The notes under the pieces: generated by a model
The model's input: the letters and a program-made list of their open reading frames with translations, nothing else
Databases searched by the model: none
Told to the model about the DNA's origin: nothing
Shown here: positions 1 to 11,090 of the stretch, piece after piece
How positions within the stretch are numbered: position 1 is the first letter of the stretch
Layout of the letters: each line of letters begins with the position of its first letter
Translations under genes and position numbers: made by a program
Origin: a virus
Lineage: Duplodnaviria; Heunggongvirae; Uroviricota; Caudoviricetes
DNA: 11,090 nucleotides
Reading direction: 5' to 3' (one strand)
Virus record (IMG/VR): IMGVR_UViG_2737471840_000003
Coordinates: 1-11,090 of that record

Positions 1-104
1 AATCATTCCCACTCAATTATTTACGAACAACATAACCAATTGACTGGTAACAACTTTCTTAAATATGATTTTTACCGTACCGTTTTATATACCGTCACCG
101 GAAA

Positions 105-593
105 TCAGTGACCCGCTTTCAGGGAGTCGTACTGTCGCTCGCATGTGAGTCCTGCAGACCGATATCGCTCAGCCTCTTCTGCTGTTGCGTTGTAAACTCG
201 GTTGCTTTCTTCAAGCATGTCGGCGAGCACACCGATGACCTTGCTGGCTGGCGTGCCAGTGGGGAAAGATCCGGTATAGTGTTCGGCGAGTCGCTTGGTT
301 TTGTCAAGCTCGGCGCGCAGGCCGTCAGCAGCGGCATTAGCATGCTCAGCGTCAACACGCGCCACATCGATACGGGATTGTGCTTCACGTTCAATTTTCG
401 TCTTCTCCTGATCACGTTGTGACCTGGCCTTATCATCAGCCTGTTTCTGGTCTGCCTGCGCCTGCGCATATCCGGCGTCGTACTGGCGGCTTCCATGAAT
501 ATTCCAGGCAACCATGCCGATGACCACCAGCGCAGCAAGCATTGCCACTATAAGCAACTGTTTCCAGTATGCTTTGACGAATTCCCAGATCAT
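105..593 (-). CDS. Putative Rz-type i-spanin (inner-membrane spanin subunit)
   Basis: 162-aa ORF directly after the endolysin; ATG at 593 overlaps the endolysin stop as ATGA (590..593). It has an N-terminal hydrophobic segment ([18 protein letters not shown]) followed by a charged, coiled-coil-like region rich in Q/A/D/K/R/E, and another ORF with a lipobox is embedded in a second frame. Possible SD AAGG 9 nt upstream. Confidence 0.7.
119..367 (-). CDS. Putative Rz1-type o-spanin (outer-membrane lipoprotein), embedded in Rz in another frame
   Basis: ATG at 367..365 opens [17 protein letters not shown]: a short basic n-region, a hydrophobic core and a lipobox-like LTAC. The mature part begins Cys-APSLTKPSDSPNTIPDLSPLARQP and is proline-rich. 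It lies wholly inside the Rz ORF, as in lambda Rz/Rz1. The start is uncertain (alternative Met codons at 343 and 337) and there is no clear SD. Confidence 0.5.
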   Translation of the reverse strand: MWRVLTLSMLMPLLTACAPSLTKPSDSPNTIPDLSPLARQPARSSVCSPTCLKKATEFTTQQQKRLSDIGLQDSHASDSTTP

Positions 594-1216
594 AACAGCG
601 CCTTACGGGCAGCACCGTAACGCGTCCGCCGGTCGTCGATACCGTTCTGTCCACCGTTAATGATCTGCGTGACGCGAACCAGGTCACCTGTGTACTTCAT
701 GCAGCCTTTGGTGGCGAAGAACCACGCCGCGCTACGAGCCGCGTATTCGTCCTGCGCCAGCAGTTCAGGATTCTCCAGCAAGTCAACTTTCAAGCCGTTT
801 CCGCAGTCACGATAGTTATTCAAACCGGTAATCTGGATAAGTCCGCGACCTCGGTAATTCCAGCCATCGCCGGGGGCATTGTTCCCCATGCGTTTGCTGT
901 ACACCAGATTGGCGATCGCTCGCTGGCGCTCGAGTGGCAATGGTGGCTCACCAGCACGTCGCCCCAGTGCATTAGCCTGCCCCTGAGTGAGACGCCCAGC
1001 CCGAACGAAGTTAGCCAGTCCGCTGACGCTGTAGTTGAAATTCTCCTGCAACCGGGTGAAGCCCACAGACTCATGCCCGACCTGAGCAATAAACATTGCC
1101 AGATCTTCTGGTTTGCTGATACCAAACTCTTTCATCGCAGAAGTTATATGCGAGAACCAGCGTGCGGCCAGCGCCTCGCTAATACCAGCAGCTCGCTGGA
1201 ATTGTTTAATCTCCAT
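590..1216 (-). CDS. Endolysin, glycoside hydrolase family 19 (chitinase-like lysozyme)
   Basis: The translation from ATG at 1216 begins [53 protein letters not shown], which matches the N-terminal pattern I recall for phage GH19 endolysins (QF..A.G.S...A..W...L..AM.EF.I.....A.F.AQ..HES..F), followed by [18 protein letters not shown] lies 6 nt upstream. The track ORF 590..1381 starts at a TTG and its first 55 codons overlap the upstream membrane-protein gene, so I shortened it. Confidence 0.9.
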
Positions 1217-1514
1217 GTTTAGACCTCGATATTTTGAAAATCTGAACAACGTTACCGCGTGTTTTAATAACCGCGGCAAGCATGACAGCGTTGATAATGA
1301 CCTCAGATAAATCCACAGCCATTGGCGTGCGTAACCAGATTGCATAAGCGACACGAACTGGAATGCTGGCCGCAGCAACAATCAGGAAATAAGCAAGCCA
1401 CCCACCCCATCGCCTGTGTTGAGAACCGTTTCTCCGAAATGTGGCAACTCGAACTGCTATACCGGCGCAAATAACCGCATTGGTGGTAAGCAAAAAAAGC
1501 TCATGAGTTACCAT
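1206..1514 (-). CDS. Small membrane protein, putative holin (lysis cassette)
   Basis: 102 aa with an ATG start at 1514 and a strong SD (GGGGAG about 8 nt upstream). It has 2-3 hydrophobic segments ([51 protein letters not shown]) and a charged C-terminus. Its 3' end overlaps the endolysin start by 11 nt. The function is assigned from position and topology only. Confidence 0.65.
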
Positions 1515-1905
1515 CGTCTTTTCTCCCCGGAATTAACTCGCGTGGATTATCGGAACGGTGATAGAGCCAGATCCCAATTCGCACAGCGACGATTGCTGAC
1601 ACAAATGCACCGGCAGAGAAAACAATCCCTTTCTCGAAAGAATCCTGTGTGATTGTAGGGATCAGGCTGGCTATGCCGATAAGAATTGATGCTGCTGGTT
1701 TGTAGAATAGAAGTCCGCAGAGAAAGCTAAGCATCGACAAGAGCACGCGACGACGAATTGGATACTCAACGGCAGAGGTAATAAATATTACCGCGCCGGA
1801 TAAAGCACCAAGAGCGACCTCTGGAGGAACCCCGGCAATGACAGCAGCCAGAGAACCCATGCTAAGCCACTGATTTAAAGACTCACTGGTTAGCTGAGCT
1901 GACAT
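1501..1905 (-). CDS. Membrane protein, putative holin or antiholin partner (lysis cassette)
   Basis: The track ORF 1501..1914 starts at GTG; the first ATG is at 1905 with GGTGG 5 nt upstream, giving 134 aa. It has about four hydrophobic segments and a charged C-terminal tail ([19 protein letters not shown]). A second Met at residue 16 (MGSLAAV..) sits just before the first TM segment. It overlaps the next membrane-protein gene by 14 nt. Confidence 0.55.
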   Translation of the reverse strand: MSAQLTSESLNQWLSMGSLAAVIAGVPPEVALGALSGAVIFITSAVEYPIRRRVLLSMLSFLCGLLFYKPAASILIGIASLIPTITQDSFEKGIVFSAGAFVSAIVAVRIGIWLYHRSDNPRELIPGRKDDGNS

Positions 1906-2001
1906 ATCAGCCACCGTTTACTGTGCATAATGAACCCCCTTAGTTGGTAAGTCCATCATACACAATAAACCATATATGGATAAGTTTACCTCGGATAACT
2001 C

Positions 2002-2030
2002 TTAACTAAATTACCTTATGGGTATATATT
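2002..2030 (+). promoter_or_regulatory. Candidate sigma70-type promoter for the acyltransferase gene
   Basis: TTAACT (2002..2007), a 17-nt spacer, then TATATT (2025..2030), about 50 nt upstream of ATG 2079 in a very AT-rich divergent intergenic region. Hexamer matching only, and AT-rich DNA gives many chance matches. Confidence 0.3.
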
Positions 2031-2078
2031 GTAGTTAATGATTGTGGAACCCATTAAAAATATTGGATAAATATTAAA

Positions 2079-3068
2079 ATGAATGAGAAGAACTATGGTG
2101 TAGTTTTAGCTCGTTTCATCGCCATTGTGCTGGTGGTGTTGCTGCATGTTGCTGCTGGTCCAGTTGGTGCAAAGTCTTCGCCTGATTGGGATTGGGCTAA
2201 CGTATATAGTGCCATATCAAAGCAATGCATTGGTATTTTCATAGTTATAACAGGGTTTCTTTACTACCATAAAAAGAAATTCGAATTCTATGATTACATT
2301 AAAAAGGGGTTTAATGTATTATTTGTCCCTCTTGTATTTTGGTGGGTAATATATGCATCTTATTACATTATATTTAAAGATGCTTCCGTAAGCAGCTTTA
2401 ATATTATGAAGCCATCTGCTGTCCATCTATGGTTTATGTATCATTATATTGCGATTTACATGTTTCTCCCGATGATAATTATTGGATGCCAACGCATGGA
2501 TTTGCGGTATAACGTGATGATATTTTTAATTCTATTCTATGGGAATTCTGTACACCCACAGCTAAAGAATTTCATTCCTAATGCACCATCTATAGATATT
2601 CCATTTGTAAGTACATTAATGTTCTATATTTTTGCCGGATGTATAGTTGCAAGACTTGAAAGCCATATCATAAAATTACGCGCTTTCATTTCGTTAACTG
2701 CTGTTATCCTTGCGGTTATATGTGTCTTTACAAATAAGGCTATATTGATTCATGGGATCAAAGGAGTAAACCTAAGCAACTTTAGCCCCATTGTTGGCAT
2801 GACAGCAATAGCAACAACCTGCGCCTGCATTGGATACGCAGACAGAATAAGCAAAAATGCAAATAAACTTGTAACTCTAATTTCCGAATATGCATTTGGA
2901 ATTTATCTTATACATCCTATTATTATATTTATAACATGGAAAATAGCTCCAGTATCAAATTATGCATGGGGAATACCTGTTGCAACTATATTTTATGTCT
3001 TTGCGTCCATGTTGATAGCTGTGATACTTTCAAAAACTCCTTTGTTAAATAGGGTGATAGCCAAGTAA
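2079..3068 (+). CDS. Acyltransferase family 3 integral membrane protein, probable O-antigen/polysaccharide O-acetyltransferase (lysogenic-conversion moron)
   Basis: 329-aa ORF that is hydrophobic throughout, with about 10 predicted TM segments. The N-terminus (YGVVLARFIAIVLVVLLHVAAGP) carries the conserved Arg and His positions I associate with acyltransferase-3 enzymes. Its length is close to short phage Oac-type acetylases. It lies on the opposite strand to all flanking phage genes, is very AT-rich (about 27-32% GC on hand-counted lines), and ends at a bidirectional terminator. Confidence 0.8.
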   Translation: MNEKNYGVVLARFIAIVLVVLLHVAAGPVGAKSSPDWDWANVYSAISKQCIGIFIVITGFLYYHKKKFEFYDYIKKGFNVLFVPLVFWWVIYASYYIIFKDASVSSFNIMKPSAVHLWFMYHYIAIYMFLPMIIIGCQRMDLRYNVMIFLILFYGNSVHPQLKNFIPNAPSIDIPFVSTLMFYIFAGCIVARLESHIIKLRAFISLTAVILAVICVFTNKAILIHGIKGVNLSNFSPIVGMTAIATTCACIGYADRISKNANKLVTLISEYAFGIYLIHPIIIFITWKIAPVSNYAWGIPVATIFYVFASMLIAVILSKTPLLNRVIAK

Positions 3069-3097
3069 AAAAAAAGCCCCTCTACGGGGCATTTTTT
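3067..3097. terminator. Bidirectional rho-independent terminator between convergent acyltransferase and tailspike genes
   Basis: An A-run (3067..3075), a stem GCCCC (3076..3080) / GGGGC (3086..3090) with loop TCTAC, then a T-run (3092..3097). It reads as hairpin plus U-tract on both strands. It overlaps both stop codons. Confidence 0.65.
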
Positions 3098-5780
3098 AAA
3101 TAGCAGAAATAATGAAACATAACATCTCATCATATCTCAAAGAGTAACCATCACCAGCTTCGCAACCTGAGAATGTCATGATTCCATTTTCATCATATTC
3201 TGGTTCCTTCTTATCCCACTTATCGTAGCAAACCATCCCATAACGCATGGGATCTAGCCCTTCATCCTCGAACGCAGAGATAACATCCTGGACAATTGCA
3301 CCTATATGATATCTTGCGCCATCGCCTTTAATAGCTACCGCATCCTTCATTCTGTACCGACAAATCATTCCCTTAATCTTGATAGCCACGCGCTTTTCGG
3401 CTTCACTTATATCCTCGAAATCTGTCTTCTTTCTTCTGTCAGATGTGTTAATGGAACCAGAATCGGCGTAGACCTGAGTCCATTTAAATGATGCACTCCC
3501 GTTAGACTGCGCGCTAGCGACGCCAGGCAATACCTGATCACTGTAAATCTGAAGAGATTGAGTCCCACCACTTTCACTTGTCACTGTCGGATTTGTGAAG
3601 AAGAAAATAGCATTAGGGTTTAAAGTACCCCCTGAGCCGATAACAAGAGGCGTAGAGGTACCGGTATAGTTTATTTGAGCGATGCCAACTTCTTTTCCTG
3701 TTGACGTTGTAAATGATATTTTGCCTAAACCACCTGAATTATTAATATTAAGCTTTGTTCCTGACAATGAGCGCCTTGTAGCTGTCCATGACCCAATGCT
3801 GCCAACTACGGAATAAATTTCTAGCCCAAGTACAGTACCGGAGGATTCAATAATGAATCCTGCATTGTTCAGATTAGTAACATGGTAAATTTGTCCTGTT
3901 ACGTAGTTAAGACCAGGTATCGTGGTGAGCGAAGGAGCAATGGTTGAAAACCAAGAGAACTCAGTTATGTTTAATGAAGCCATTAAATCAAGAATTTGAG
4001 AAACACTGCTGAAGACTGTATTTAAGACTGGATCGCGCAATTCCCCACGCTCCGAACGCATGAGCCTATTAAATCCATATGTTGGGAGAGGACAATATCC
4101 GGAAGCGGCATCCAGCATGTTAAATCCATCCCGTGAAAACTCCCTCATTATAACAATGCCATTGGGTGTGCTAGGAGATGATTCAGCCATATCACCGATA
4201 AGAATTGAATGGATAGTGCCGTCAGGGTGCTTGAAACATCCCTCTGACTCTGTTCTTGAGACGGTGCAACCGTTTGATGCCAGATAAGTCATCAACTTAT
4301 CTGATTTCACAACAGAGTGGTCTATTAACTCACCAGAGAGTGACACTCTGAGGACTCCGTAATCATGAACAGGGTATTTTGCATCATCAAATGTAGGACG
4401 ATAACTGCCACCTACGCCTATATGAAGGATCCCATTTTTGTATGCTATACCCTGAATTTTCCATACCATGTAATAGTAGGTAGGGGAGAGCTCTGGAGTT
4501 GCAAACCCTGTAAGCATCTGAGAGACATTTATTGTTCCCTGCTTCTCACCTGTATCAAGACGATAAGAATTTATAACAGTCTGTGATTGTGACAATCCTA
4601 CTGGTGTCGCGTTTAATGTGCAGAAGAGTAAATTACCATCAATGCACATATGTGATCCAGCCGACTGAATTGTCGTTATTGTGTGCCCTGAAAGCGTGCT
4701 ACCTGCTGCGGGTAATGTGGTTATGTCATAATAATAAACAAAATCATCCCCAAGACGTCTGTCATACAATCTACGTGATGAACTTCCGCCATATATAGCC
4801 ACAGACTGATTACTACTGTTTGGACTATAAAACCACGTTACTTGCTCTCCTGCCTGGTTATAAACAACTATAACCCTAAGCGCCCCTCCAGCATTAGGCA
4901 CATAGTTAATGAAGAGTAGACCATCATCATCATAGTCAGCACCCTGCGGGTATATGATGCTTCCAGCTCCAATTGCCGCCAGTGCATCAGAATACCCATC
5001 GAACTGAAATGGAAGTTTGTAGATTATTTTTTTCCTGAAATTCTGATCTTTAATGGCACTACCAACAGTACCGTCAGGATACTGGATAGAATCGCTATAA
5101 CCTGATAACCCGGCACCTGTTGGTTTCACTAATTCAACAAGAACATCAGTGGCAGAACCAGATGGCGGCAATGTTACAAAAGGAGACCCACTATTATCGA
5201 AGGCTATTATCTTGTTCGCCCTGACAGCGGCAGATGGAAGTGTGGGTATAGGTTCAGGTGTTCTTAGCGTTCTGTTGAGATTGGTTTCAGAAATACTGTC
5301 TACATAGTTCTTTGTAGCAGCATCTTGCGGCCGAGATGGATCCCTGAGATTTCTGATATAGTTGCCCAGGGCGTCATAATAGTTGGCTACAAAGGATGGT
5401 TTTCTTAACGACAGACTAAACCAACTTCTTACCTGCTGAACAAGCATAGTTAACTTATCAAATGCATCCTCATGCACTTCTGCAAAAAACTTCCCCTGGT
5501 TCCTTAGGTCTGTTTCTTGGGTAACCGGCAACTCTCTTGAAATAGAAATCTTATACCCATTGCCTAAAGCAGTTGATAAAACAACATTCCCCCCCGTGTA
5601 TCCACCAGTACCTGTAATCGAATAATCAGTATCAAGCACAAGAGTGGTTATATTTTCATCCAGATCAACAACCTGCACAACCAGGTCTGACTTCTGAAAA
5701 ATTCGAAAGGTATAAGGAAATGAAGTCGTAACGCCATTACCTGTATATTCGTTATGGTCAACTTCGGTTGAGACCGTCAT
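3096..5780 (-). CDS. Tailspike / tail fibre protein with C-terminal intramolecular chaperone (peptidase S74-like) domain
   Basis: 894-aa ORF with ATG at 5780 and SD GGAG 9 nt upstream. The N-terminal roughly 120 aa (MTVSTEVDHNEYTGNGVTTSFPYTFRIFQKSDLVVQVVD...) resemble the conserved particle-binding module of epsilon15-like tailspikes as I recall it. The C-terminal 115 aa begin SDRRKKTDFEDIS and contain YHIGAIVQDV, which fits the S74 autoproteolytic chaperone pattern. The central part is Ser/Thr/Gly/Asn-rich and looks beta-rich. Confidence 0.9.
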   Translation of the reverse strand: MTVSTEVDHNEYTGNGVTTSFPYTFRIFQKSDLVVQVVDLDENITTLVLDTDYSITGTGGYTGGNVVLSTALGNGYKISISRELPVTQETDLRNQGKFFAEVHEDAFDKLTMLVQQVRSWFSLSLRKPSFVANYYDALGNYIRNLRDPSRPQDAATKNYVDSISETNLNRTLRTPEPIPTLPSAAVRANKIIAFDNSGSPFVTLPPSGSATDVLVELVKPTGAGLSGYSDSIQYPDGTVGSAIKDQNFRKKIIYKLPFQFDGYSDALAAIGAGSIIYPQGADYDDDGLLFINYVPNAGGALRVIVVYNQAGEQVTWFYSPNSSNQSVAIYGGSSSRRLYDRRLGDDFVYYYDITTLPAAGSTLSGHTITTIQSAGSHMCIDGNLLFCTLNATPVGLSQSQTVINSYRLDTGEKQGTINVSQMLTGFATPELSPTYYYMVWKIQGIAYKNGILHIGVGGSYRPTFDDAKYPVHDYGVLRVSLSGELIDHSVVKSDKLMTYLASNGCTVSRTESEGCFKHPDGTIHSILIGDMAESSPSTPNGIVIMREFSRDGFNMLDAASGYCPLPTYGFNRLMRSERGELRDPVLNTVFSSVSQILDLMASLNITEFSWFSTIAPSLTTIPGLNYVTGQIYHVTNLNNAGFIIESSGTVLGLEIYSVVGSIGSWTATRRSLSGTKLNINNSGGLGKISFTTSTGKEVGIAQINYTGTSTPLVIGSGGTLNPNAIFFFTNPTVTSESGGTQSLQIYSDQVLPGVASAQSNGSASFKWTQVYADSGSINTSDRRKKTDFEDISEAEKRVAIKIKGMICRYRMKDAVAIKGDGARYHIGAIVQDVISAFEDEGLDPMRYGMVCYDKWDKKEPEYDENGIMTFSGCEAGDGYSLRYDEMLCFIISAI
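3099..3443 (-). other. Predicted S74-type autocleaving chaperone domain of the tailspike (C-terminal 115 codons)
   Basis: Begins at the Ser codon (3441..3443) of the SDRRKK motif and runs to the last sense codon. By analogy with endosialidase and T5 L-shaped fibre chaperone domains, cleavage is expected at this Ser. Confidence 0.6.
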
Positions 5781-5834
5781 GTTAAATCTCCAGATAGTCG
5801 CAGCACCCGTTGCGCCGCATATCCGGTTATTCTA

Positions 5835-5899
5835 TTACCTGAAAAACCACATATGGATAGATAAACCATAAATACGAACAGATATTACCTTTCAGGTGA
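5835..5899. promoter_or_regulatory. Inverted-repeat element in the divergent intergenic region upstream of the tailspike
   Basis: TTACCTGAAA (5835..5844) and TTTCAGGTGA (5890..5899) are inverted 10-bp arms with one mismatch, 45 bp apart. The right arm also forms a local hairpin ACCT-TTC-AGGT (5887..5897). They sit 55-120 nt upstream of the tailspike ATG. Function unknown. Confidence 0.3.
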
Positions 5900-5975
5900 T
5901 TCGCAAAACGTGCTGGATAGCAAACAAATTATTTGCTACTGTATAAATATACAGTTATTGCATGGAGAAGATAAG

Positions 5976-6233
5976 ATGCAGCAGTATCACTATCCACTGG
6001 AAGACGGATTTACCGAAAGGATTCACACGCCGGGAGGCGTCAGGTCACTGGTGGAGGGATCGCACTTGATGAAATTACTCCGGGATCTCGATAAGGATGG
6101 ATTTAATGTCGATGGCCCACTTGCCGAACTGACTGCACTGATTAACTACGTCACCAGCTCACAGATGTCTATGCAGGATCTGCAAACACATCTCGACTAT
6201 TGTGCCGAACAATTACGAAAACAAATCCGGTAA
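5976..6233 (+). CDS. Hypothetical small protein (85 aa), orphan plus-strand gene between virion genes and tailspike
   Basis: ATG at 5976 with SD GGAG 8 nt upstream. The track ORF 5910..6233 starts at GTG with an implausible N-terminus. A TGTATAAAT element at 5940..5948 is -10-like. GC content matches the phage core (34/60 on line 6001). Stop TAA is at 6231..6233, followed by the hairpin at 6241..6256. I recognise no family for MQQYHYPLEDGFTERIHTPGGVRSLVEG.... Confidence 0.5.
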   Translation: MQQYHYPLEDGFTERIHTPGGVRSLVEGSHLMKLLRDLDKDGFNVDGPLAELTALINYVTSSQMSMQDLQTHLDYCAEQLRKQIR

Positions 6234-6240
6234 ATTTAAG

Positions 6241-6256
6241 GGCCGCGAAAGCGGCC
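6241..6256. terminator. GC-rich hairpin, probable terminator for the convergent small genes and the upstream virion operon
   Basis: GGCCGC-GAAA-GCGGCC is a perfect 6-bp stem with a GNRA-type loop. On the minus strand it is followed by CTTAAATTT, a weak U-tract; there is no T-run on the plus strand. It lies between the stop of the 85-aa plus-strand ORF and the stop of the 46-aa minus-strand ORF. Confidence 0.4.
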
Positions 6257-6276
6257 TGTGACATGTCACACTCAAG

Positions 6277-6417
6277 CTATGACAAACCTATGTACCCTGC
6301 TACACCAGATAATATCAAAACAACTGCTACAGCAAATTCACCGTCTTCAATGATACATTTACGATTCATAACGCCAAGGGCAACAAGCACAAATACAACA
6401 AGAATAAAAGCAATCAT
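6277..6417 (-). CDS. Unannotated 46-aa two-TM membrane peptide (not in the ORF track)
   Basis: ATG at 6417 with SD AAGGA 6 nt upstream; the SD overlaps the TAA stop of the 824-aa gene (minus strand reads CCGCAA-TAA-GGATGAGAA-ATG). My hand translation is MIAFILVVFVLVALGVMNRKCIIEDGEFAVAVVLILSGVAGYIGLS, with stop TAG at 6279..6277. It shows two hydrophobic segments separated by a short charged loop (NRKCIIEDGE). Confidence 0.4.
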   Translation of the reverse strand: MIAFILVVFVLVALGVMNRKCIIEDGEFAVAVVLILSGVAGYIGLS

Positions 6418-6426
6418 TTCTCATCC

Positions 6427-8901
6427 TTATTGCGGAGTGACATCCTGAGGTCGCCACCAGTATGTCTGGTTAAACTCTTTCTTCGAACGTTGCTCCATTT
6501 TACGCAAATAGCCTGGTGAAAAATACTCCTGCATCTGGTTAAAGATCATGTGATCGAGAGCCGCCTTCAAGTACCAGAGATTCGCACCTGGCATCAAACC
6601 TTTCCCCAGCTTCACCAGATCACCACCAGTCTGCTCACTCTTCCCTTCCACAGCATTTAACGGTATGCCCTGAGCAATCTTCACTACGTCATCAACCAGA
6701 CCAGCCACCGGGCCAAGCATCGACGCCAGCGCGCCGCTTCCGTACCTAGTGTGATCTGACAATAAAAAGTCACCGTAAAGGCCAAGACCACCACCTTTCA
6801 ATAGAGCACCAAGCCAGAATTTTGCGGCATCTTCTCCTGTCATCTCGCGAGGATTACGACCAGACGCAAGGTCGTTAAGTTGCTGCGACAAAGCTCCAAG
6901 AATGGTCGTACTGGCAATAAACGTCGCAATATATGCCGCACGCCCACCAGCAGACGGCATACCCATAGCGCGTGACCAGTGACGCATAACCACCGAGATA
7001 GGGAACGATTTAAACAGGAAAACACTTCTCGTTAATTCACCTTTCCATGTTCCACGCTGAATACCAGAACCGGTTATCAGTTGCTCACGTGCTCCCGGTG
7101 TAATAACAGCCATATCAACTTCTTCAGTTACGGCACCGAGCAGTTTACGCATTGCCTCAAATTTCACGCGTTCAGGCTCACCAAGATGTTTAACTGCTGA
7201 ATCAGGGATACGCATAATGCTTTCCGGTGTCAGCATCGTATTATTACCGTTCCCCCAGTCCTCCTGTTGCGCCAACTTCCATACGCTCCAGTCTGTGTCA
7301 GTAATCCCTTTGCTTTTCAGGATACGAAAATCAGAGTCATCGAGGCTACGAAGGCCTGGTGTCCGTGACACTACTTCTCCCAGGCTTCCCATCATGGTTA
7401 CGCCATAGGCGCGCTTGTGCGCATCTGACCATGCTGTAAGCCCACTGGCACGCATTACCGCCGTTGCAGCCCAACGAGACACAGACGGCCCCATATTATC
7501 CATCGCCCAGCGGTTAACGCTGCCAAGTAGAGATTCCATCGCCAGACCAGCGCGGCGCGCCCGCGCAAGCTCAGTACGGTTCGTTGGGTCCATAGCTTCA
7601 AGCTGGTTGCGGAATAACTGGTTCATCGGAAGGTTGGTCACCTTCGCAGACAGATACATGGTTCCAAGATCAGAGAACGATGACAGCAACGCGGATCCGA
7701 GTCTGCTGGCAACCAGCCAGTTGCGGATATTGTCAGACCATCGCGCGATGTGCGGATTCGCTACAGGCTGTGTCTTTCCGGAAATAAAGTTGTACAGATT
7801 CTCTGTGTTGTTCGCCAGCCGCTCGACTTTACCGGTTTTACTCGGGTTAGCTGTTGCCGTTTCTGCCTTAACCTGATCAAGAAGGGAGCGGAAAACATGA
7901 TCGGGGTTTGGACCATATGTTTCCACCAGAGCAATATCTTTACTGATACCTTCCAGGTGACCGACCATGATTTCCCATAGAGAGCGATCGCCATAAAGTT
8001 GTTGATATTGGAGATAGGAATCTGCATCTTTGAAATGTATCTGTCGTGATGCATTACCACGGTTAGCACGTGCGCCGGAAATTCGCATTCCGGTATCAGT
8101 AAGCTTATTCAGCCCACCAGTAGCGATCGTGTTATAAGCCTCTCCAAGAAATGCAGACAACTCGGCATCGTTCATCAGTTGTCCATCGGCTCGGGTATAA
8201 TATTTGCGATCCAGCTTACCTATAACATCGCTAACCCATTTATCTTTTGATACCGCACCAACCTTTTCCATAGAATGATGTTGAGGGATCCCCCAGTTTT
8301 CGAGATAGCCAATGTCCCCACCAGCATCATTAAACCGGCGGCGCAGCAGCTCTGTAACTTCTCTCCACGCCTTAGCACCTTTTCTTGCTTTAGCATTGCC
8401 AGTATTTTGCCCCCGCATTTCATATACCAGGTCACGTACGCCCGCTTCATCTTCAAACAGACCAAAAAAGCGAGGATCAACTGCTTCGAATGCCTCCTGC
8501 AATTGACTCAATGCATAATCACGGGTGGCTTTTGTTCTGGATTCAACAGAGAGGAAATTAGATTTACCGTCTGCATTAAAAGCTATAGTACGGTTAAGAG
8601 CGCCAAGTTTCCCATCAGCCCCTTGATAGCTATTGATAAATTTATCCAATCTCTGACGCGCGGCTATAGTGAGAGCCACACGACGTTTCTTTAATGCCGC
8701 TTCTCGCTGTAATTCTTCAGATGCCAATTGTGCTGCTCGATATAGCCGCTCTGATTCGGAAAGTTGTCGCCACGACATCGGGTCATCACGAGCAATGGAG
8801 CGCATATTTCGATAAATGCGGTCTTCAATGTTTTGTATTTCTCGCGCCGTTAAAGTGCGCTGCGCCGCCTGCTGGACCGCTTGTATACATTCCTGTCTCA
8901 T
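6427..8901 (-). CDS. Large virion protein (824 aa), putative internal core / ejection protein
   Basis: ATG at 8901 with SD GAGG about 11 nt upstream, 5 nt after the stop of the 600-aa gene. It has a helical, charged N-terminus and C-terminal Gly-rich hydrophobic stretches (AAYIATFIASTTILGAL, FWLGALLKGGGLGLYGDFLL, LASMLGPVAGLV). No enzymatic motif recognised. The function is inferred from size, composition and position upstream of the tailspike. Confidence 0.8.
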   Translation of the reverse strand: MRQECIQAVQQAAQRTLTAREIQNIEDRIYRNMRSIARDDPMSWRQLSESERLYRAAQLASEELQREAALKKRRVALTIAARQRLDKFINSYQGADGKLGALNRTIAFNADGKSNFLSVESRTKATRDYALSQLQEAFEAVDPRFFGLFEDEAGVRDLVYEMRGQNTGNAKARKGAKAWREVTELLRRRFNDAGGDIGYLENWGIPQHHSMEKVGAVSKDKWVSDVIGKLDRKYYTRADGQLMNDAELSAFLGEAYNTIATGGLNKLTDTGMRISGARANRGNASRQIHFKDADSYLQYQQLYGDRSLWEIMVGHLEGISKDIALVETYGPNPDHVFRSLLDQVKAETATANPSKTGKVERLANNTENLYNFISGKTQPVANPHIARWSDNIRNWLVASRLGSALLSSFSDLGTMYLSAKVTNLPMNQLFRNQLEAMDPTNRTELARARRAGLAMESLLGSVNRWAMDNMGPSVSRWAATAVMRASGLTAWSDAHKRAYGVTMMGSLGEVVSRTPGLRSLDDSDFRILKSKGITDTDWSVWKLAQQEDWGNGNNTMLTPESIMRIPDSAVKHLGEPERVKFEAMRKLLGAVTEEVDMAVITPGAREQLITGSGIQRGTWKGELTRSVFLFKSFPISVVMRHWSRAMGMPSAGGRAAYIATFIASTTILGALSQQLNDLASGRNPREMTGEDAAKFWLGALLKGGGLGLYGDFLLSDHTRYGSGALASMLGPVAGLVDDVVKIAQGIPLNAVEGKSEQTGGDLVKLGKGLMPGANLWYLKAALDHMIFNQMQEYFSPGYLRKMEQRSKKEFNQTYWWRPQDVTPQ

Positions 8902-8906
8902 TTAAT

Positions 8907-10709
8907 TTAACCTCTCAAGAAACACGCCACAGCGACATCAAACAGGCTGGAATCCTGTATTGCCTGCTCACTTTCCCTGTTCGCTTCATCCAGTACTTCA
9001 CGCGCGCTGCGCGATTGTGGATTACCATCATCATCCAGCACGGTGATTATCATGTCAGGTGATTCAAGCAGCGAGTCTTCAGCTATGCGCAGATCAATAT
9101 CTCCTGCCGGATCTGCCATCATTTTTTGTTCTGTCTGTTGCAATATCTTACCGGGCTCAAAAGGAGCTACTTCGTCTGGCGTCCTGACCTCTGCTGTTTT
9201 ATAGAATGAAACAGCCTGAGCATTAAGTTCACTTTCTGCCTGCTGTCGTCGTGCCAGTTCTGCTCGAGCTTCAAAAAACTGACCGCCAGGCTCATGCGGT
9301 GCCAACGCGTTACGGGAAAATTCCAGGCGCTCTTGTGCCTGCCGGATTCGTTGGTCAATATCGCGAAGTCTGACCTGTTTATCTGATCGAGCACGAGACA
9401 AAGCTTTACCGCTACCGGTTGGCTCTTCTGCAAGAATTTGTGCGCGCTGTTCAGTGAGATTTTCAATAATTCGTTGGCTATTAGCGATTTCAGACTGGTA
9501 AACCTGTCTATCGCCACGCGGCAAAAGCTGCGCGGCCTGTTCTTCAAGCAACCGATTTTCTATAGCGCGCGCCGTTACTCCATCATCTACAGATGACAGA
9601 GCCTCATTAACTGCCTGAGACAGCAGACTCTTGCGCCCAGGAATTTCACTGAAAGATGCAGACTCAACAATGCTGGCAACGTCTACAGGTCTCCCCTGGC
9701 TAACATCAGACATAGCTTTTCGCAGAGCCTGAATGTGAGAATTGCGCGAAAGCACGTTGATCGGCACGCCGGGCGCAATATCAATTTCAGCATGATGAGC
9801 GGCATTCGCCGCCAGTGCAGCATCAACATCAACTGGTGAAAAATTTGGTGCGCTTGTAGACTCGCCGCGAGAGTTCATAAATCTGCCGACACCACCAAAC
9901 GCCACCCCAAGAACAGCATCAATAGCAATTGCCTGTCGATCCAACACATCATACTGGTTAGCCATTTCGCTATAGCCACCATCACGAAGCGTTTTTGCAG
10001 TAAGCCCACGCTGTGCCATACCGAACGCAATATTTGTACCTGCGGCATAGGCAATATCTGGCGTTGCACGTACTGCTGTTGCTGCGGCGCGTCGCACTGA
10101 ACTTTCACCCGTCCGCGCAAGCTGGGCCGCCACACCTTCCGCCAGCGCACCACCAGCACGTAACCCGAGGCTCATAGGGATCAGTGTTCCGGCACCAGCA
10201 GTAATACCCTGCACTAATCCCGCTTCCTGCGCCGTCCTGAAATCAACACCCTGTGCTGTCAGCCGTTCAAACTCAGAAAAACCCTGTAGAGAAGTTACCG
10301 CCGCAGCACCTCCGACCGGACCACCGAGCGTTGTACCGACAACAGCCTGCCCTCCCATATCGAACAACCCATAAAGGACCTGCCCGGCGGTTCCGGTTGT
10401 CGCGGCATCAGGCGTCAGCCGCTTAACCTGCTGCTCTGCTAGTTTTCTCTGCTCAGCAATGTATGAAACTGAAGTGTCATTAAGCGAGGTGTTTTCGTTA
10501 ACAAACTGAGCAATCGGGGATACGATTTTATCCATCCCTGCCCATAGCAACTGATCTGGCTTTGCCACCAGCCCGGAGTACAAACCAGACAATGCCGCTC
10601 CTACAGCATTGTCGAAAAAACCAACATTGCTGTTAAAGCCAGCTGGATTTGATGCTGCTTCGTCAAGCTGCTGATTCTGGCTTACTGGATTAAGGCCAAA
10701 GTAACTCAT
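8907..10709 (-). CDS. Large Gly/Ala-rich virion protein (600 aa), putative internal core / ejection protein
   Basis: ATG at 10709 overlaps the upstream gene's stop as ATGA (10706..10709); GGAG lies about 10 nt upstream. It has long Gly/Ala-rich low-complexity stretches (VVGTTLGGPVGGAAAVTSL, GITAGAGTLIPMSLGLRAGGALAEGVAAQLA) and a charged helical region (EQRAQILAEE...RQAQERLE). No enzymatic motif recognised. Confidence 0.8.
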   Translation of the reverse strand: MSYFGLNPVSQNQQLDEAASNPAGFNSNVGFFDNAVGAALSGLYSGLVAKPDQLLWAGMDKIVSPIAQFVNENTSLNDTSVSYIAEQRKLAEQQVKRLTPDAATTGTAGQVLYGLFDMGGQAVVGTTLGGPVGGAAAVTSLQGFSEFERLTAQGVDFRTAQEAGLVQGITAGAGTLIPMSLGLRAGGALAEGVAAQLARTGESSVRRAAATAVRATPDIAYAAGTNIAFGMAQRGLTAKTLRDGGYSEMANQYDVLDRQAIAIDAVLGVAFGGVGRFMNSRGESTSAPNFSPVDVDAALAANAAHHAEIDIAPGVPINVLSRNSHIQALRKAMSDVSQGRPVDVASIVESASFSEIPGRKSLLSQAVNEALSSVDDGVTARAIENRLLEEQAAQLLPRGDRQVYQSEIANSQRIIENLTEQRAQILAEEPTGSGKALSRARSDKQVRLRDIDQRIRQAQERLEFSRNALAPHEPGGQFFEARAELARRQQAESELNAQAVSFYKTAEVRTPDEVAPFEPGKILQQTEQKMMADPAGDIDLRIAEDSLLESPDMIITVLDDDGNPQSRSAREVLDEANRESEQAIQDSSLFDVAVACFLRG

Positions 10710-11090
10710 TGCGGAATATCTCCGGAGAATCTCTGACGTTTCTGTGTCAGATTAAGAACAACGGGAGAACCATCATCTTTCAGCAGATAACCAGTACCAA
10801 GTTTCACCAGGTACTGACTATCGCCGTAACTTTGCAAACCATACTGACCAGGCGGTGTTTTTATCCCGGAGCCGACAACTTGTTCATTCCAAGCCTGATT
10901 AACCTGCTTATCGAATTGCTCTGCAGACATTCCCCACGGCAAAAGGACATTCCCCATTCCGTTATAGTCATGCACGCCACCTGTAGCTACGTTAACAGCC
11001 TGTTTCCAGACATCATTGTCAATTTCGCCTGATACCACGCCTTTTTTCGCCATCACGCCAGCGTAATAGTCCTTTGCGATCTCGTATGCC
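10706..11090 (-). CDS. Phage late-operon protein, probably 5'-truncated at the window edge
   Basis: The track ORF 10706..11056 starts at a GTG. The same frame stays open with no stop up to the window edge (..AYEIAKDYYAG-V-MAKKGVVSGEID..), so the gene may begin beyond 11090. An internal ATG at 11053 has only a poorly spaced AGGA 19 nt upstream. Product unknown. Confidence 0.55.
   Translation of the reverse strand, partial: AYEIAKDYYAGVMAKKGVVSGEIDNDVWKQAVNVATGGVHDYNGMGNVLLPWGMSAEQFDKQVNQAWNEQVVGSGIKTPPGQYGLQSYGDSQYLVKLGTGYLLKDDGSPVVLNLTQKRQRFSGDIPQ

Follow-up and report, generated by a model that had tools for sequence, protein, structure and literature searches.

An acyltransferase-3 gene paired with the tailspike of a phiV10-like prophage as a candidate for modification of the O28ac/O42 O-antigen

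This study focused on a window of 11,090 nucleotides (positions 1 to 11,090 of the IMG/VR record IMGVR_UViG_2737471840_000003, a tailed virus), and specifically on a gene for an acyltransferase-3 (AT3) type membrane protein that lies in it between the tailspike gene and the lysis genes. The window belongs to a prophage resembling phiV10 and epsilon15 (Uetakevirus), and parts of its backbone are 93-96% identical to phiV10, PAS61 and other members of that genus. The AT3 gene probably serves lysogenic conversion, its product acylating the O-antigen carried by Escherichia coli of serogroups O28ac/O42 and so blocking adsorption by the very type of tailspike that is encoded beside it. An initial annotation, made from the letters of the sequence, had proposed a receptor-modifying conversion gene at this place, and that interpretation is supported, with all in silico tests pointing its way. 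The gene is rare, is under purifying selection, is exchanged between phage backbones together with the receptor-binding part of the tailspike, and was found in hosts carrying O28ac/O42 O-antigen genes.

The AT3 protein and the loss of its RXXR motif

The open reading frame (ORF) was found exactly where the initial annotation had placed it, and the family assignment was borne out by a profile search in which PF01757 (Acyl_transf_3) matched with E=1e-36 at a score of 127.1 bits, the gathering cut-off being 31. The alignment joined residues 7-318 of the protein to positions 3-325 of the 326 in the model, and thus ran over its full length. PHROG 3333 ('O-acetyltransferase') was also matched (E=7e-17), and a search of NCBIfam with the protein matched no model. 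Hydropathy analysis gave eight clear and two weaker transmembrane (TM) segments, and the AlphaFold model (predicted local distance difference test, pLDDT, 85; predicted TM-score, pTM, 0.86) was all-helical, with 10-11 long helices. Its top fold matches in the PDB were to human HGSNAT (probability ~1, query-normalised TM-score 0.47-0.52), a transmembrane, acetyl-CoA-dependent acetyltransferase that has recently been united with the AT3 proteins in the TmAT superfamily (PMC12423673). No AT3 proper was found in either the sequence or the fold searches of the PDB.

Conservation was assessed in an alignment of 153 relatives of the protein and in one of its own lineage. The R-X10-H motif of TM1 is kept as R12 and H23, both invariant in the lineage; 96% of the relatives have R or K at position 12, and 98% have H at position 23. 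Also kept are the FFxISG-type motif of TM2 (F54-I-V-I-T58-G59; S or T in 99% and G in 99% of relatives) and the C-terminal motif G274-I-Y-L-I-H279 (H in 99%), as well as H116-L-W118, of which H116 and W118 do not vary across the lineage. The ratio of non-synonymous to synonymous substitution rates (dN/dS) within the lineage was 0.08-0.16 (0.08 against the Hafnia homologue, 0.11 between two other members), which, taken with the invariance of R12, H23, G59, H116, W118 and H279, indicates that function has been maintained.

The lineage is rare. In a collection of 5.8 billion proteins it was represented by four clusters at 55-92% identity, all others being at 28% or less; among 1.84 billion cluster representatives one was at least 50% identical, and the next 32%; and IMG/VR held a single further copy, in the same type of prophage. 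Pairwise comparison with the AT3 domains of AT3-SGNH proteins gave no significant similarity. Origin as a copy of the AT3 gene in the O-antigen cluster of the host was ruled out (blastp E=0.03), and because it is unlike that chromosomal protein, the phage AT3 would add a different modification.

The protein departs from its family in the RXXR motif, which lies at the cytoplasmic end of TM3 and is reported to be essential in OafA (R69/R72), OafB (R71/R74) and Sf6 Oac (R73/R75), the OafA substitutions R69A and R72A leaving ~0.1% of activity (PMC7448272, PMC9833829). In the AT3 protein, and in all four clusters of its lineage, G77 and V80 or L80 stand where this motif is expected (KKGFNV in the window). 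Among the relatives, R77 is present in 80% and R or K at position 80 in 99% (152/153); only one of the 153 lacks both, and 16% lack the first basic residue. Since the motif has been described as 'highly but not absolutely conserved' (PMC7448272), its loss does not exclude membership of the AT3 family, but it makes the protein atypical and means that AT3 activity cannot be taken for granted. Two lysines, K75 and K76, directly precede the position of the lost Arg77 and may substitute for it, and K220 is specific to the lineage.

Other departures of the lineage from the roughly 150 relatives are Val9 (Asp or Glu in 80%), Gly52 (Pro in 97%) and Lys220 (Thr in 71%). Near the cytoplasmic face one acidic and one basic residue have been lost together, which might mean that a salt bridge is gone. 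If the protein works, it would do so as a naturally RXXR-less AT3, implying another way of holding the acyl-CoA donor, for example through K75/K76/K220, and it would be a useful natural variant for the study of acyl-CoA binding.

Exchange with the tailspike, and the serogroup of the hosts

Comparison of the window with related phages revealed a mosaic pattern. By blastn, phiV10 covers positions 1-2027 and 5245-11090, PAS61 covers 118-1991 and 5303-11090, and a Hafnia phage contig is similar at 2107-5171 only. The breakpoints mark the AT3 gene, the terminator that follows it and the receptor-binding part of the tailspike as one exchangeable cassette. The N-terminus of the tailspike is 68-75% identical to the tailspike N-termini of phiV10 and PAS61 and the remainder is unrelated to them; PHROG tail families match residues 1-~290. 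The low G+C content of the AT3 gene (0.35, compared with 0.42 for the tailspike gene and 0.47-0.59 for the remaining window) is further support for a foreign insert.

The pairing of the two genes extends well beyond the window. Eight further loci with an AT3 of this lineage have a receptor-binding part 75-100% identical to that of the window. Wherever the neighbour of an AT3 relative could be seen, it was a convergent tailspike of the same family, or the Peptidase_S74-ending remnant of one. The backbones differ, being those of epsilon15-like prophages, of a prophage whose tape measure is of the lambda type (loci L005-L008), of a Hafnia phage (L010, a short contig) and of a decayed remnant (L009, and E. 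coli PK5). A search that started from the tailspike recovered temperate, epsilon15-like phages with a 329-residue AT3 (L016/L017 and L018), and apparently virulent ones (L019, L028/L029) with receptor-binding domains 68-69% identical and no AT3. The former of the virulent types encodes DNA polymerase A and an SNF2 helicase with an intein, the latter Erf and an exonuclease in a T1-like arrangement. Absence of the AT3 from virulent-looking phages with the same type of tailspike is what would be expected if the value of the gene lies in lysogeny. In the same slot, other members of the Uetakevirus genus carry genes annotated as acyltransferase or 'O-antigen acetylase', and the AT3s of sister phages with other tailspikes are unrelated to the one described here.

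Serogroup was surveyed in 5,426 complete E. coli genomes. The O28ac/O42 wzy gene (O-antigen polymerase) was present in seven of these, and all five genomes with an AT3 of the lineage (E47, C6, JML285, PK5 and CUPF12) were among the seven carriers. The nominal P is 5e-16, rising to 1e-9 to 1e-6 should no more than three or two of the events be independent. NCTC9699 and Z1323PEC0012 are O28ac/O42 strains that lack the lineage. DNA of the tailspike receptor-binding part was found only in three O28ac/O42 lysogens. The AT3 lineage occurred with a single receptor-binding family and, among the complete E. coli genomes, in every case in an O28ac/O42 host. In E47, C6 and JML285, for which complete chromosomes exist, the prophage is integrated beside yfgI, and the stretch 1900-5800 is 99.0-99.8% identical to the window; identity over the whole window is 97% for JML285 and 98.8-99.7% for E47. 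That the lysogens represent one clone was ruled out, as the host flanks of E47 and JML285 are 99.3% identical and their prophages 93-97%.

The O-antigen clusters of E47 and JML285 are at least 99.8% identical. In JML285 the cluster includes wzx and wzy, both named 'O28ac/O42 family' by the annotation pipeline PGAP, together with genes for a cytidylyltransferase, a CDP-glycerol glycerophosphotransferase, two GT2 glycosyltransferases, a 356-residue AT3 of its own, and glf, and the same cluster is intact in E47 and NCTC9699. The annotation of JML285 gives wzx (L013 13921-15151; NZ_AP024114.1 1943920-1945150) as a pseudogene, with a frameshift and an internal stop, although E47 and NCTC9699 have the gene intact. 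The defect in JML285 is due either to an error in the long-read assembly or to a rough, O-antigen-negative lysogen. Literature mentioning JML285 gave no O type, and a literature search on NCTC9699 found nothing.

Several other loci show further arrangements of these genes. In one E. coli prophage with a lambda-type tape measure and a Tail_spike_N head domain, near zinT/yodB (L005 3235-9471, GCA_012356715.2; also L006-L008), the order is gtrA-gtrB-gtrC, then an AT3 of 55% identity, then a tailspike whose receptor-binding part is 83% identical, so that two O-antigen modification systems are adjacent. In E. coli PK5 (L015 5554-9977; NZ_CP074024.1 ~1888272-1892695) a prophage remnant beside yodB/tRNA-Asn, similar in layout to L009, retains a gene for a 652-residue AT3-SGNH protein and a short AT3 of the lineage, split by IS5, along with a probable tailspike stub (a 73-residue ORF) and a probable integrase stub; here the acyltransferase genes have outlived the phage. 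A metagenome contig with a tailspike receptor-binding part 49% identical to that of the window (L020 226-3761, SRR33471254_638991) has no AT3, but carries directly upstream of the tailspike a gene for a 454-residue Lipase_GDSL_2 (SGNH-type esterase) protein. This might be a tail protein that removes acetyl groups and so works against O-antigen acetylation. The tailspike N-terminus and/or the holin flank were matched by 518 of the 5,426 complete genomes (~10%), with different cassettes between them (e.g. H44, H45, H50-H53). Many of the tailspikes concerned are annotated as SGNH/GDSL hydrolases, which makes the slot a general hot spot of receptor-related diversity.

When the receptor-binding part was compared with PDB sequences by profile search, only its S74 domain matched. 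The portion of the tailspike ahead of that domain (residues ~237-779, positions 3444-5072) matches no Pfam domain and, by sequence, no protein of solved structure, and its AlphaFold pLDDT is 42. Tail proteins from Kayfunavirus, Erwinia, Staphylococcus and Weissella phages resemble it significantly but distantly (23-28%). Endosialidase or glycerophosphodiesterase is the name given to some of them, without support from Pfam. A possible link to teichoic acid was considered, as a domain of the tailspike is also present in Staphylococcus and Weissella phage tail proteins annotated 'glycerophosphoryl diester phosphodiesterase', and the host cluster encodes a glycerophosphotransferase, but it was rejected as evidence because neither those proteins nor the tailspike have a Pfam GDPD domain.

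Proposed function and its alternatives

The AT3 gene is the sole sizeable gene on the forward strand amid late genes on the reverse strand; it lies opposite in orientation to both the tailspike gene and the lysis cassette, as described in the initial annotation, and converges on the former. The 27-nt gap between the AT3 and tailspike stop codons is occupied by an intrinsic terminator (A9-GCCCC-TCTAC-GGGGC-A-T6) that was detected on both strands by a terminator scan, with a predicted folding energy of -12.8 kcal/mol on the forward and -13.6 kcal/mol on the reverse strand (z ~-3.5); none of 200 shuffled sequences folded equally well, which confirms the shared bidirectional terminator proposed earlier. 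GC-rich hairpins of differing sequence occupy the same position in L010, L005 and L009, and also in Sf6. The promoter-like region that had been noted upstream is present as a sigma-70-like site (TTAACT-17-TATATT) matching nine of 12 consensus positions, and its hexamers are identical in all prophages of the window type, but they are not conserved in phiV10. Moreover, seven sites of this quality were observed in the region against 8.2 +/- 3.3 expected by chance from shuffled sequences. A promoter of its own is plausible for the gene.

The AT3 gene would, then, be a 'moron' of a temperate podovirus resembling phiV10 and epsilon15. In the lysogen it would be transcribed against the late operon, with the two-way terminator insulating it from the tailspike gene, and its product would be an AT3-only acyltransferase of the inner membrane. 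An acyl group, which is most likely acetyl and drawn from acetyl-CoA in the cytoplasm, would pass through a transmembrane pore by way of Arg12 and His23 of TM1, and would be placed, on the periplasmic side, on a sugar hydroxyl of the O28ac/O42-type O-antigen. The modified O-antigen would be a poor receptor or substrate for the adjoining tailspike, so that superinfection by this phage, and by others with the same tailspike, would be blocked and the O epitope altered. It is by analogy with phiV10 Oac and Sf6 Oac that the gene is taken to be expressed in the lysogen, and the same analogy underlies what is said of the donor of the acyl group, of the acceptor sugar and its position, and of the exclusion effect. 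According to the initial annotation, the substrate could not be read from sequence and might be O-antigen, capsule or another glycan; this holds for the protein taken by itself, but comparative genomics narrows the choice strongly, and likely to the O28ac/O42 O-antigen.

A number of points weigh against this proposal. The RXXR motif is absent, though it is reported as essential in OafA, OafB and Sf6 Oac. The association with serogroup is confounded, because the prophage resides only in hosts that its tailspike lets it infect; it shows the specificity of the tailspike more directly than that of the AT3, and the argument for the AT3 substrate therefore rests on coupling at the level of the cassette. 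Even there, the identities of AT3 and receptor-binding part are not strictly parallel (98.5/75, 75/92 and 55/83%), which indicates that the two genes recombine independently within the pair and that the pairing is kept at the level of families. The promoter match is at chance level, leaving expression in lysogens to be inferred. Acetylation and the blocking of adsorption are likewise inferences.

The confounded association leaves some room for the view that the AT3 acylates a different envelope glycan, such as enterobacterial common antigen, colanic acid, a K capsule, the lipopolysaccharide core, osmoregulated periplasmic glucans or peptidoglycan, and merely hitch-hikes beside the tailspike, the restriction to O28ac/O42 reflecting the host range of the phage. 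AT3 proteins do act on many acceptors (PMC9558356), and no NCBIfam subfamily assigns a substrate to this one. Such a role seems unlikely, however, as it leaves unexplained why the lineage pairs with one receptor-binding family across several backbones, and why the slot is filled by unrelated AT3s in those sister phages whose tailspikes are different. It also sits poorly with the position of the AT3 directly after a gtrABC O-antigen glucosylation operon in one backbone, and with its retention alongside an AT3-SGNH gene in the PK5 remnant. The unusual residues raise a different doubt, namely that a protein in which G77 and V80 or L80 replace the R and the R/K of most relatives, and which has lost the usual acidic residue 9 and gained K220, is not a standard acetyl-CoA-dependent O-acetyltransferase, but uses another donor or group, or has a non-catalytic role such as interference with O-antigen processing. 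Other AT3s transfer succinyl or longer acyl groups. Yet His23, Arg12 and the H116/W118/H279 motifs are invariant, K75/K76 may make good the lost Arg in a family where 16% of the relatives lack the first basic residue, and the incomplete conservation reported for RXXR accommodates such a protein; a departure of this kind is improbable.

The modification could also be real without self-exclusion being its main benefit, which might instead be protection from other O-antigen phages, or antigenic change of the host, whether for immune evasion or as the source of O28ac/O42 serological variation. Virulent phages with tailspikes of the same family exist (L019, L028) and would be excluded as well, and the AT3 genes kept by PK5 and CUPF12 in decayed prophage remnants suggest a benefit to the host. 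On the other hand, the short AT3 of PK5 is interrupted by IS5, and so is not always kept. There is little reason to prefer this account, which would in any case be compatible with O-antigen acylation that excludes phages of the same tailspike type, rather than exclusive of it. Although the gene clusters for O28ac and O42 are almost identical and the two antigens cross-react, they are distinct sera (PMC4732683), a difference for which a modifier encoded outside the cluster is an obvious candidate. The AT3 is put forward as a candidate explanation of the difference in typing, a concrete though not a probable one, with relevance to sequence-based serotyping.

If the proposal is confirmed, the tailspike family, the AT3 lineage and the O28ac/O42 antigen would form a triplet of phage, receptor and modifier, and would join the few known cases in which prophage O-antigen acetylation is tied to the phage's own tailspike. 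For phage engineering on the phiV10 backbone, be it for therapy or for reporter phages, the cassette marks where host range and exclusion would be swapped together. The points of most experimental interest are the loss of RXXR and the possible O28ac/O42 link.

Gene order and comparison with known systems

The features of the window are collected in Table 1. Within the lysis cassette, the Rz1 o-spanin frame, with its lipobox, sits in the +1 frame of Rz, and phiV10 is annotated likewise. The mechanically called endolysin ORF (590-1381, reverse strand, 263 residues, TTG start) is too long; the annotated length in relatives is 208-209 residues, which fits an ATG at 1216 that overlaps the end of the holin gene. 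Scans of the window for Rfam families and tRNA genes gave no match.

Table 1. Features of the 11,090-nt window (positions are those of the window).
Feature	Position	Strand	Remarks
Rz gene	105..593	-	
Rz1	119..367	-	embedded in Rz
GH19 endolysin gene	590..~1216	-	
Holin gene	1206..1514	-	
Holin-like gene	1501..1914	-	
Sigma-70-like promoter candidate	2002..2030	+	TTAACT-17-TATATT, 9/12 consensus positions; weak evidence
Mosaic cassette	2028..5244		AT3 gene, terminator and tailspike receptor-binding part; swapped together by comparison with the phiV10/PAS61 backbones
AT3-only acyltransferase gene	2079..3068	+	329 aa, ATG start, ~10 TM helices; lysogenic-conversion candidate
AT3 residues 9, 52, 77, 80, 220	2103-2105, 2232-2234, 2307-2309, 2316-2318, 2736-2738		
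Bidirectional intrinsic terminator	3067..3097	both	stem 3076-3090, A9 on one side, T6 on the other
Tailspike gene	3096..5780	-	
Tailspike receptor-binding part	3096..5072	-	aa ~237-894; putative functional partner of the AT3
Peptidase_S74 intramolecular chaperone domain	~3255-3443	-	tailspike aa 780-842, Pfam
Tailspike N-terminal adaptor	5073..5780	-	aa 1-~236; epsilon15/phiV10 backbone part docking the spike to the virion
Internal virion protein genes	6427-8901 and 8907-10709	-	

A second variable slot lies between the tailspike and virion-protein genes (window 5781-6426; L003 24118-25338; L001 6695-7715). In the window it holds only an 85-residue ORF on the forward strand (5976-6233, PHROG 450) and a 46-residue ORF with two TM segments on the reverse strand (6277-6417). 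The slot of phiV10 is ~1 kb longer and includes a gene for a Bro-N anti-repressor. Bro-N is present in L016 too, and an ISKox3 insertion in E47.

The closest precedent for the AT3 is the Oac protein of phiV10. It has been described as an O-acetyltransferase of the O157 antigen that gives immunity to superinfection (Perry et al. 2009, cited in PMC9558356 and PMC11854483), and expression of phiV10 oac from a plasmid modified the O157 antigen, prevented plaques and reduced phage binding (PMC11854483; PMC9558356). The two phages share genus and backbone, with 80-98% nucleotide identity in the flanks, and the two genes share the slot between the holin-like gene and the tailspike, as well as an orientation converging on the latter. 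Both products are AT3-only proteins of similar length (329 residues in the window and 338 in phiV10), of which 283 residues align (E=5e-18). Identity is only 26%, however, the receptor-binding parts of the partner tailspikes are unrelated, phiV10 infects O157 hosts whereas the hosts of the window prophage are O28ac/O42, and phiV10 Oac retains R-x-x-R (KRANR) where the window has KKGFNV.

The Oac protein of phage Sf6 (OacA, 333 residues), the type to which the initial annotation had likened the AT3, is comparable in architecture, being likewise a short, AT3-only protein whose gene is convergent with that of the tailspike, the short gap between them holding a terminator, and its R-X10-H and (S/T)G motifs align with those of the AT3. 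It carries out 2-O-acetylation of rhamnose I in the S. flexneri O-antigen, and this acetylation has been proposed to block the phage's own tailspike (PMC9558356). Pairwise similarity between the two proteins was not detectable (blastp E=2), the AT3 lacks a counterpart of R73/R75/R76, which are reported as critical, and Sf6 is a P22-like Lederbergvirus in which oac adjoins int rather than lysis genes.

OafA and OafB of Salmonella, as well as the 618-residue 'O-antigen acetylase' of PAS61, resemble the AT3 in their Pfam AT3 domain and the R-X10-H of TM1, and the PAS61 gene occupies the same slot of the same backbone. These proteins have a periplasmic SGNH domain, for the final transfer, that the AT3 does not, and the PAS61 gene is on the late-operon strand. 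The gtrABC cassettes of temperate phages are similar in that they are prophage-borne, lie at the prophage edge and convert serotype by modifying the O-antigen, but they do so by glucosylation via undecaprenyl-phosphate glucose with different protein families, and the window has no gtr genes. Orthology of the AT3 to a characterised Oac was thus not found, given 26% identity to phiV10 Oac and no significant match to Sf6 Oac, but its layout, an AT3-only gene of a temperate phage adjoining the tailspike, is that of both phiV10 and Sf6. The AT3 gene falls into a well-known class of prophage conversion genes, in which it is rare, uncharacterised and atypical in its motifs; it is not a new kind of system.

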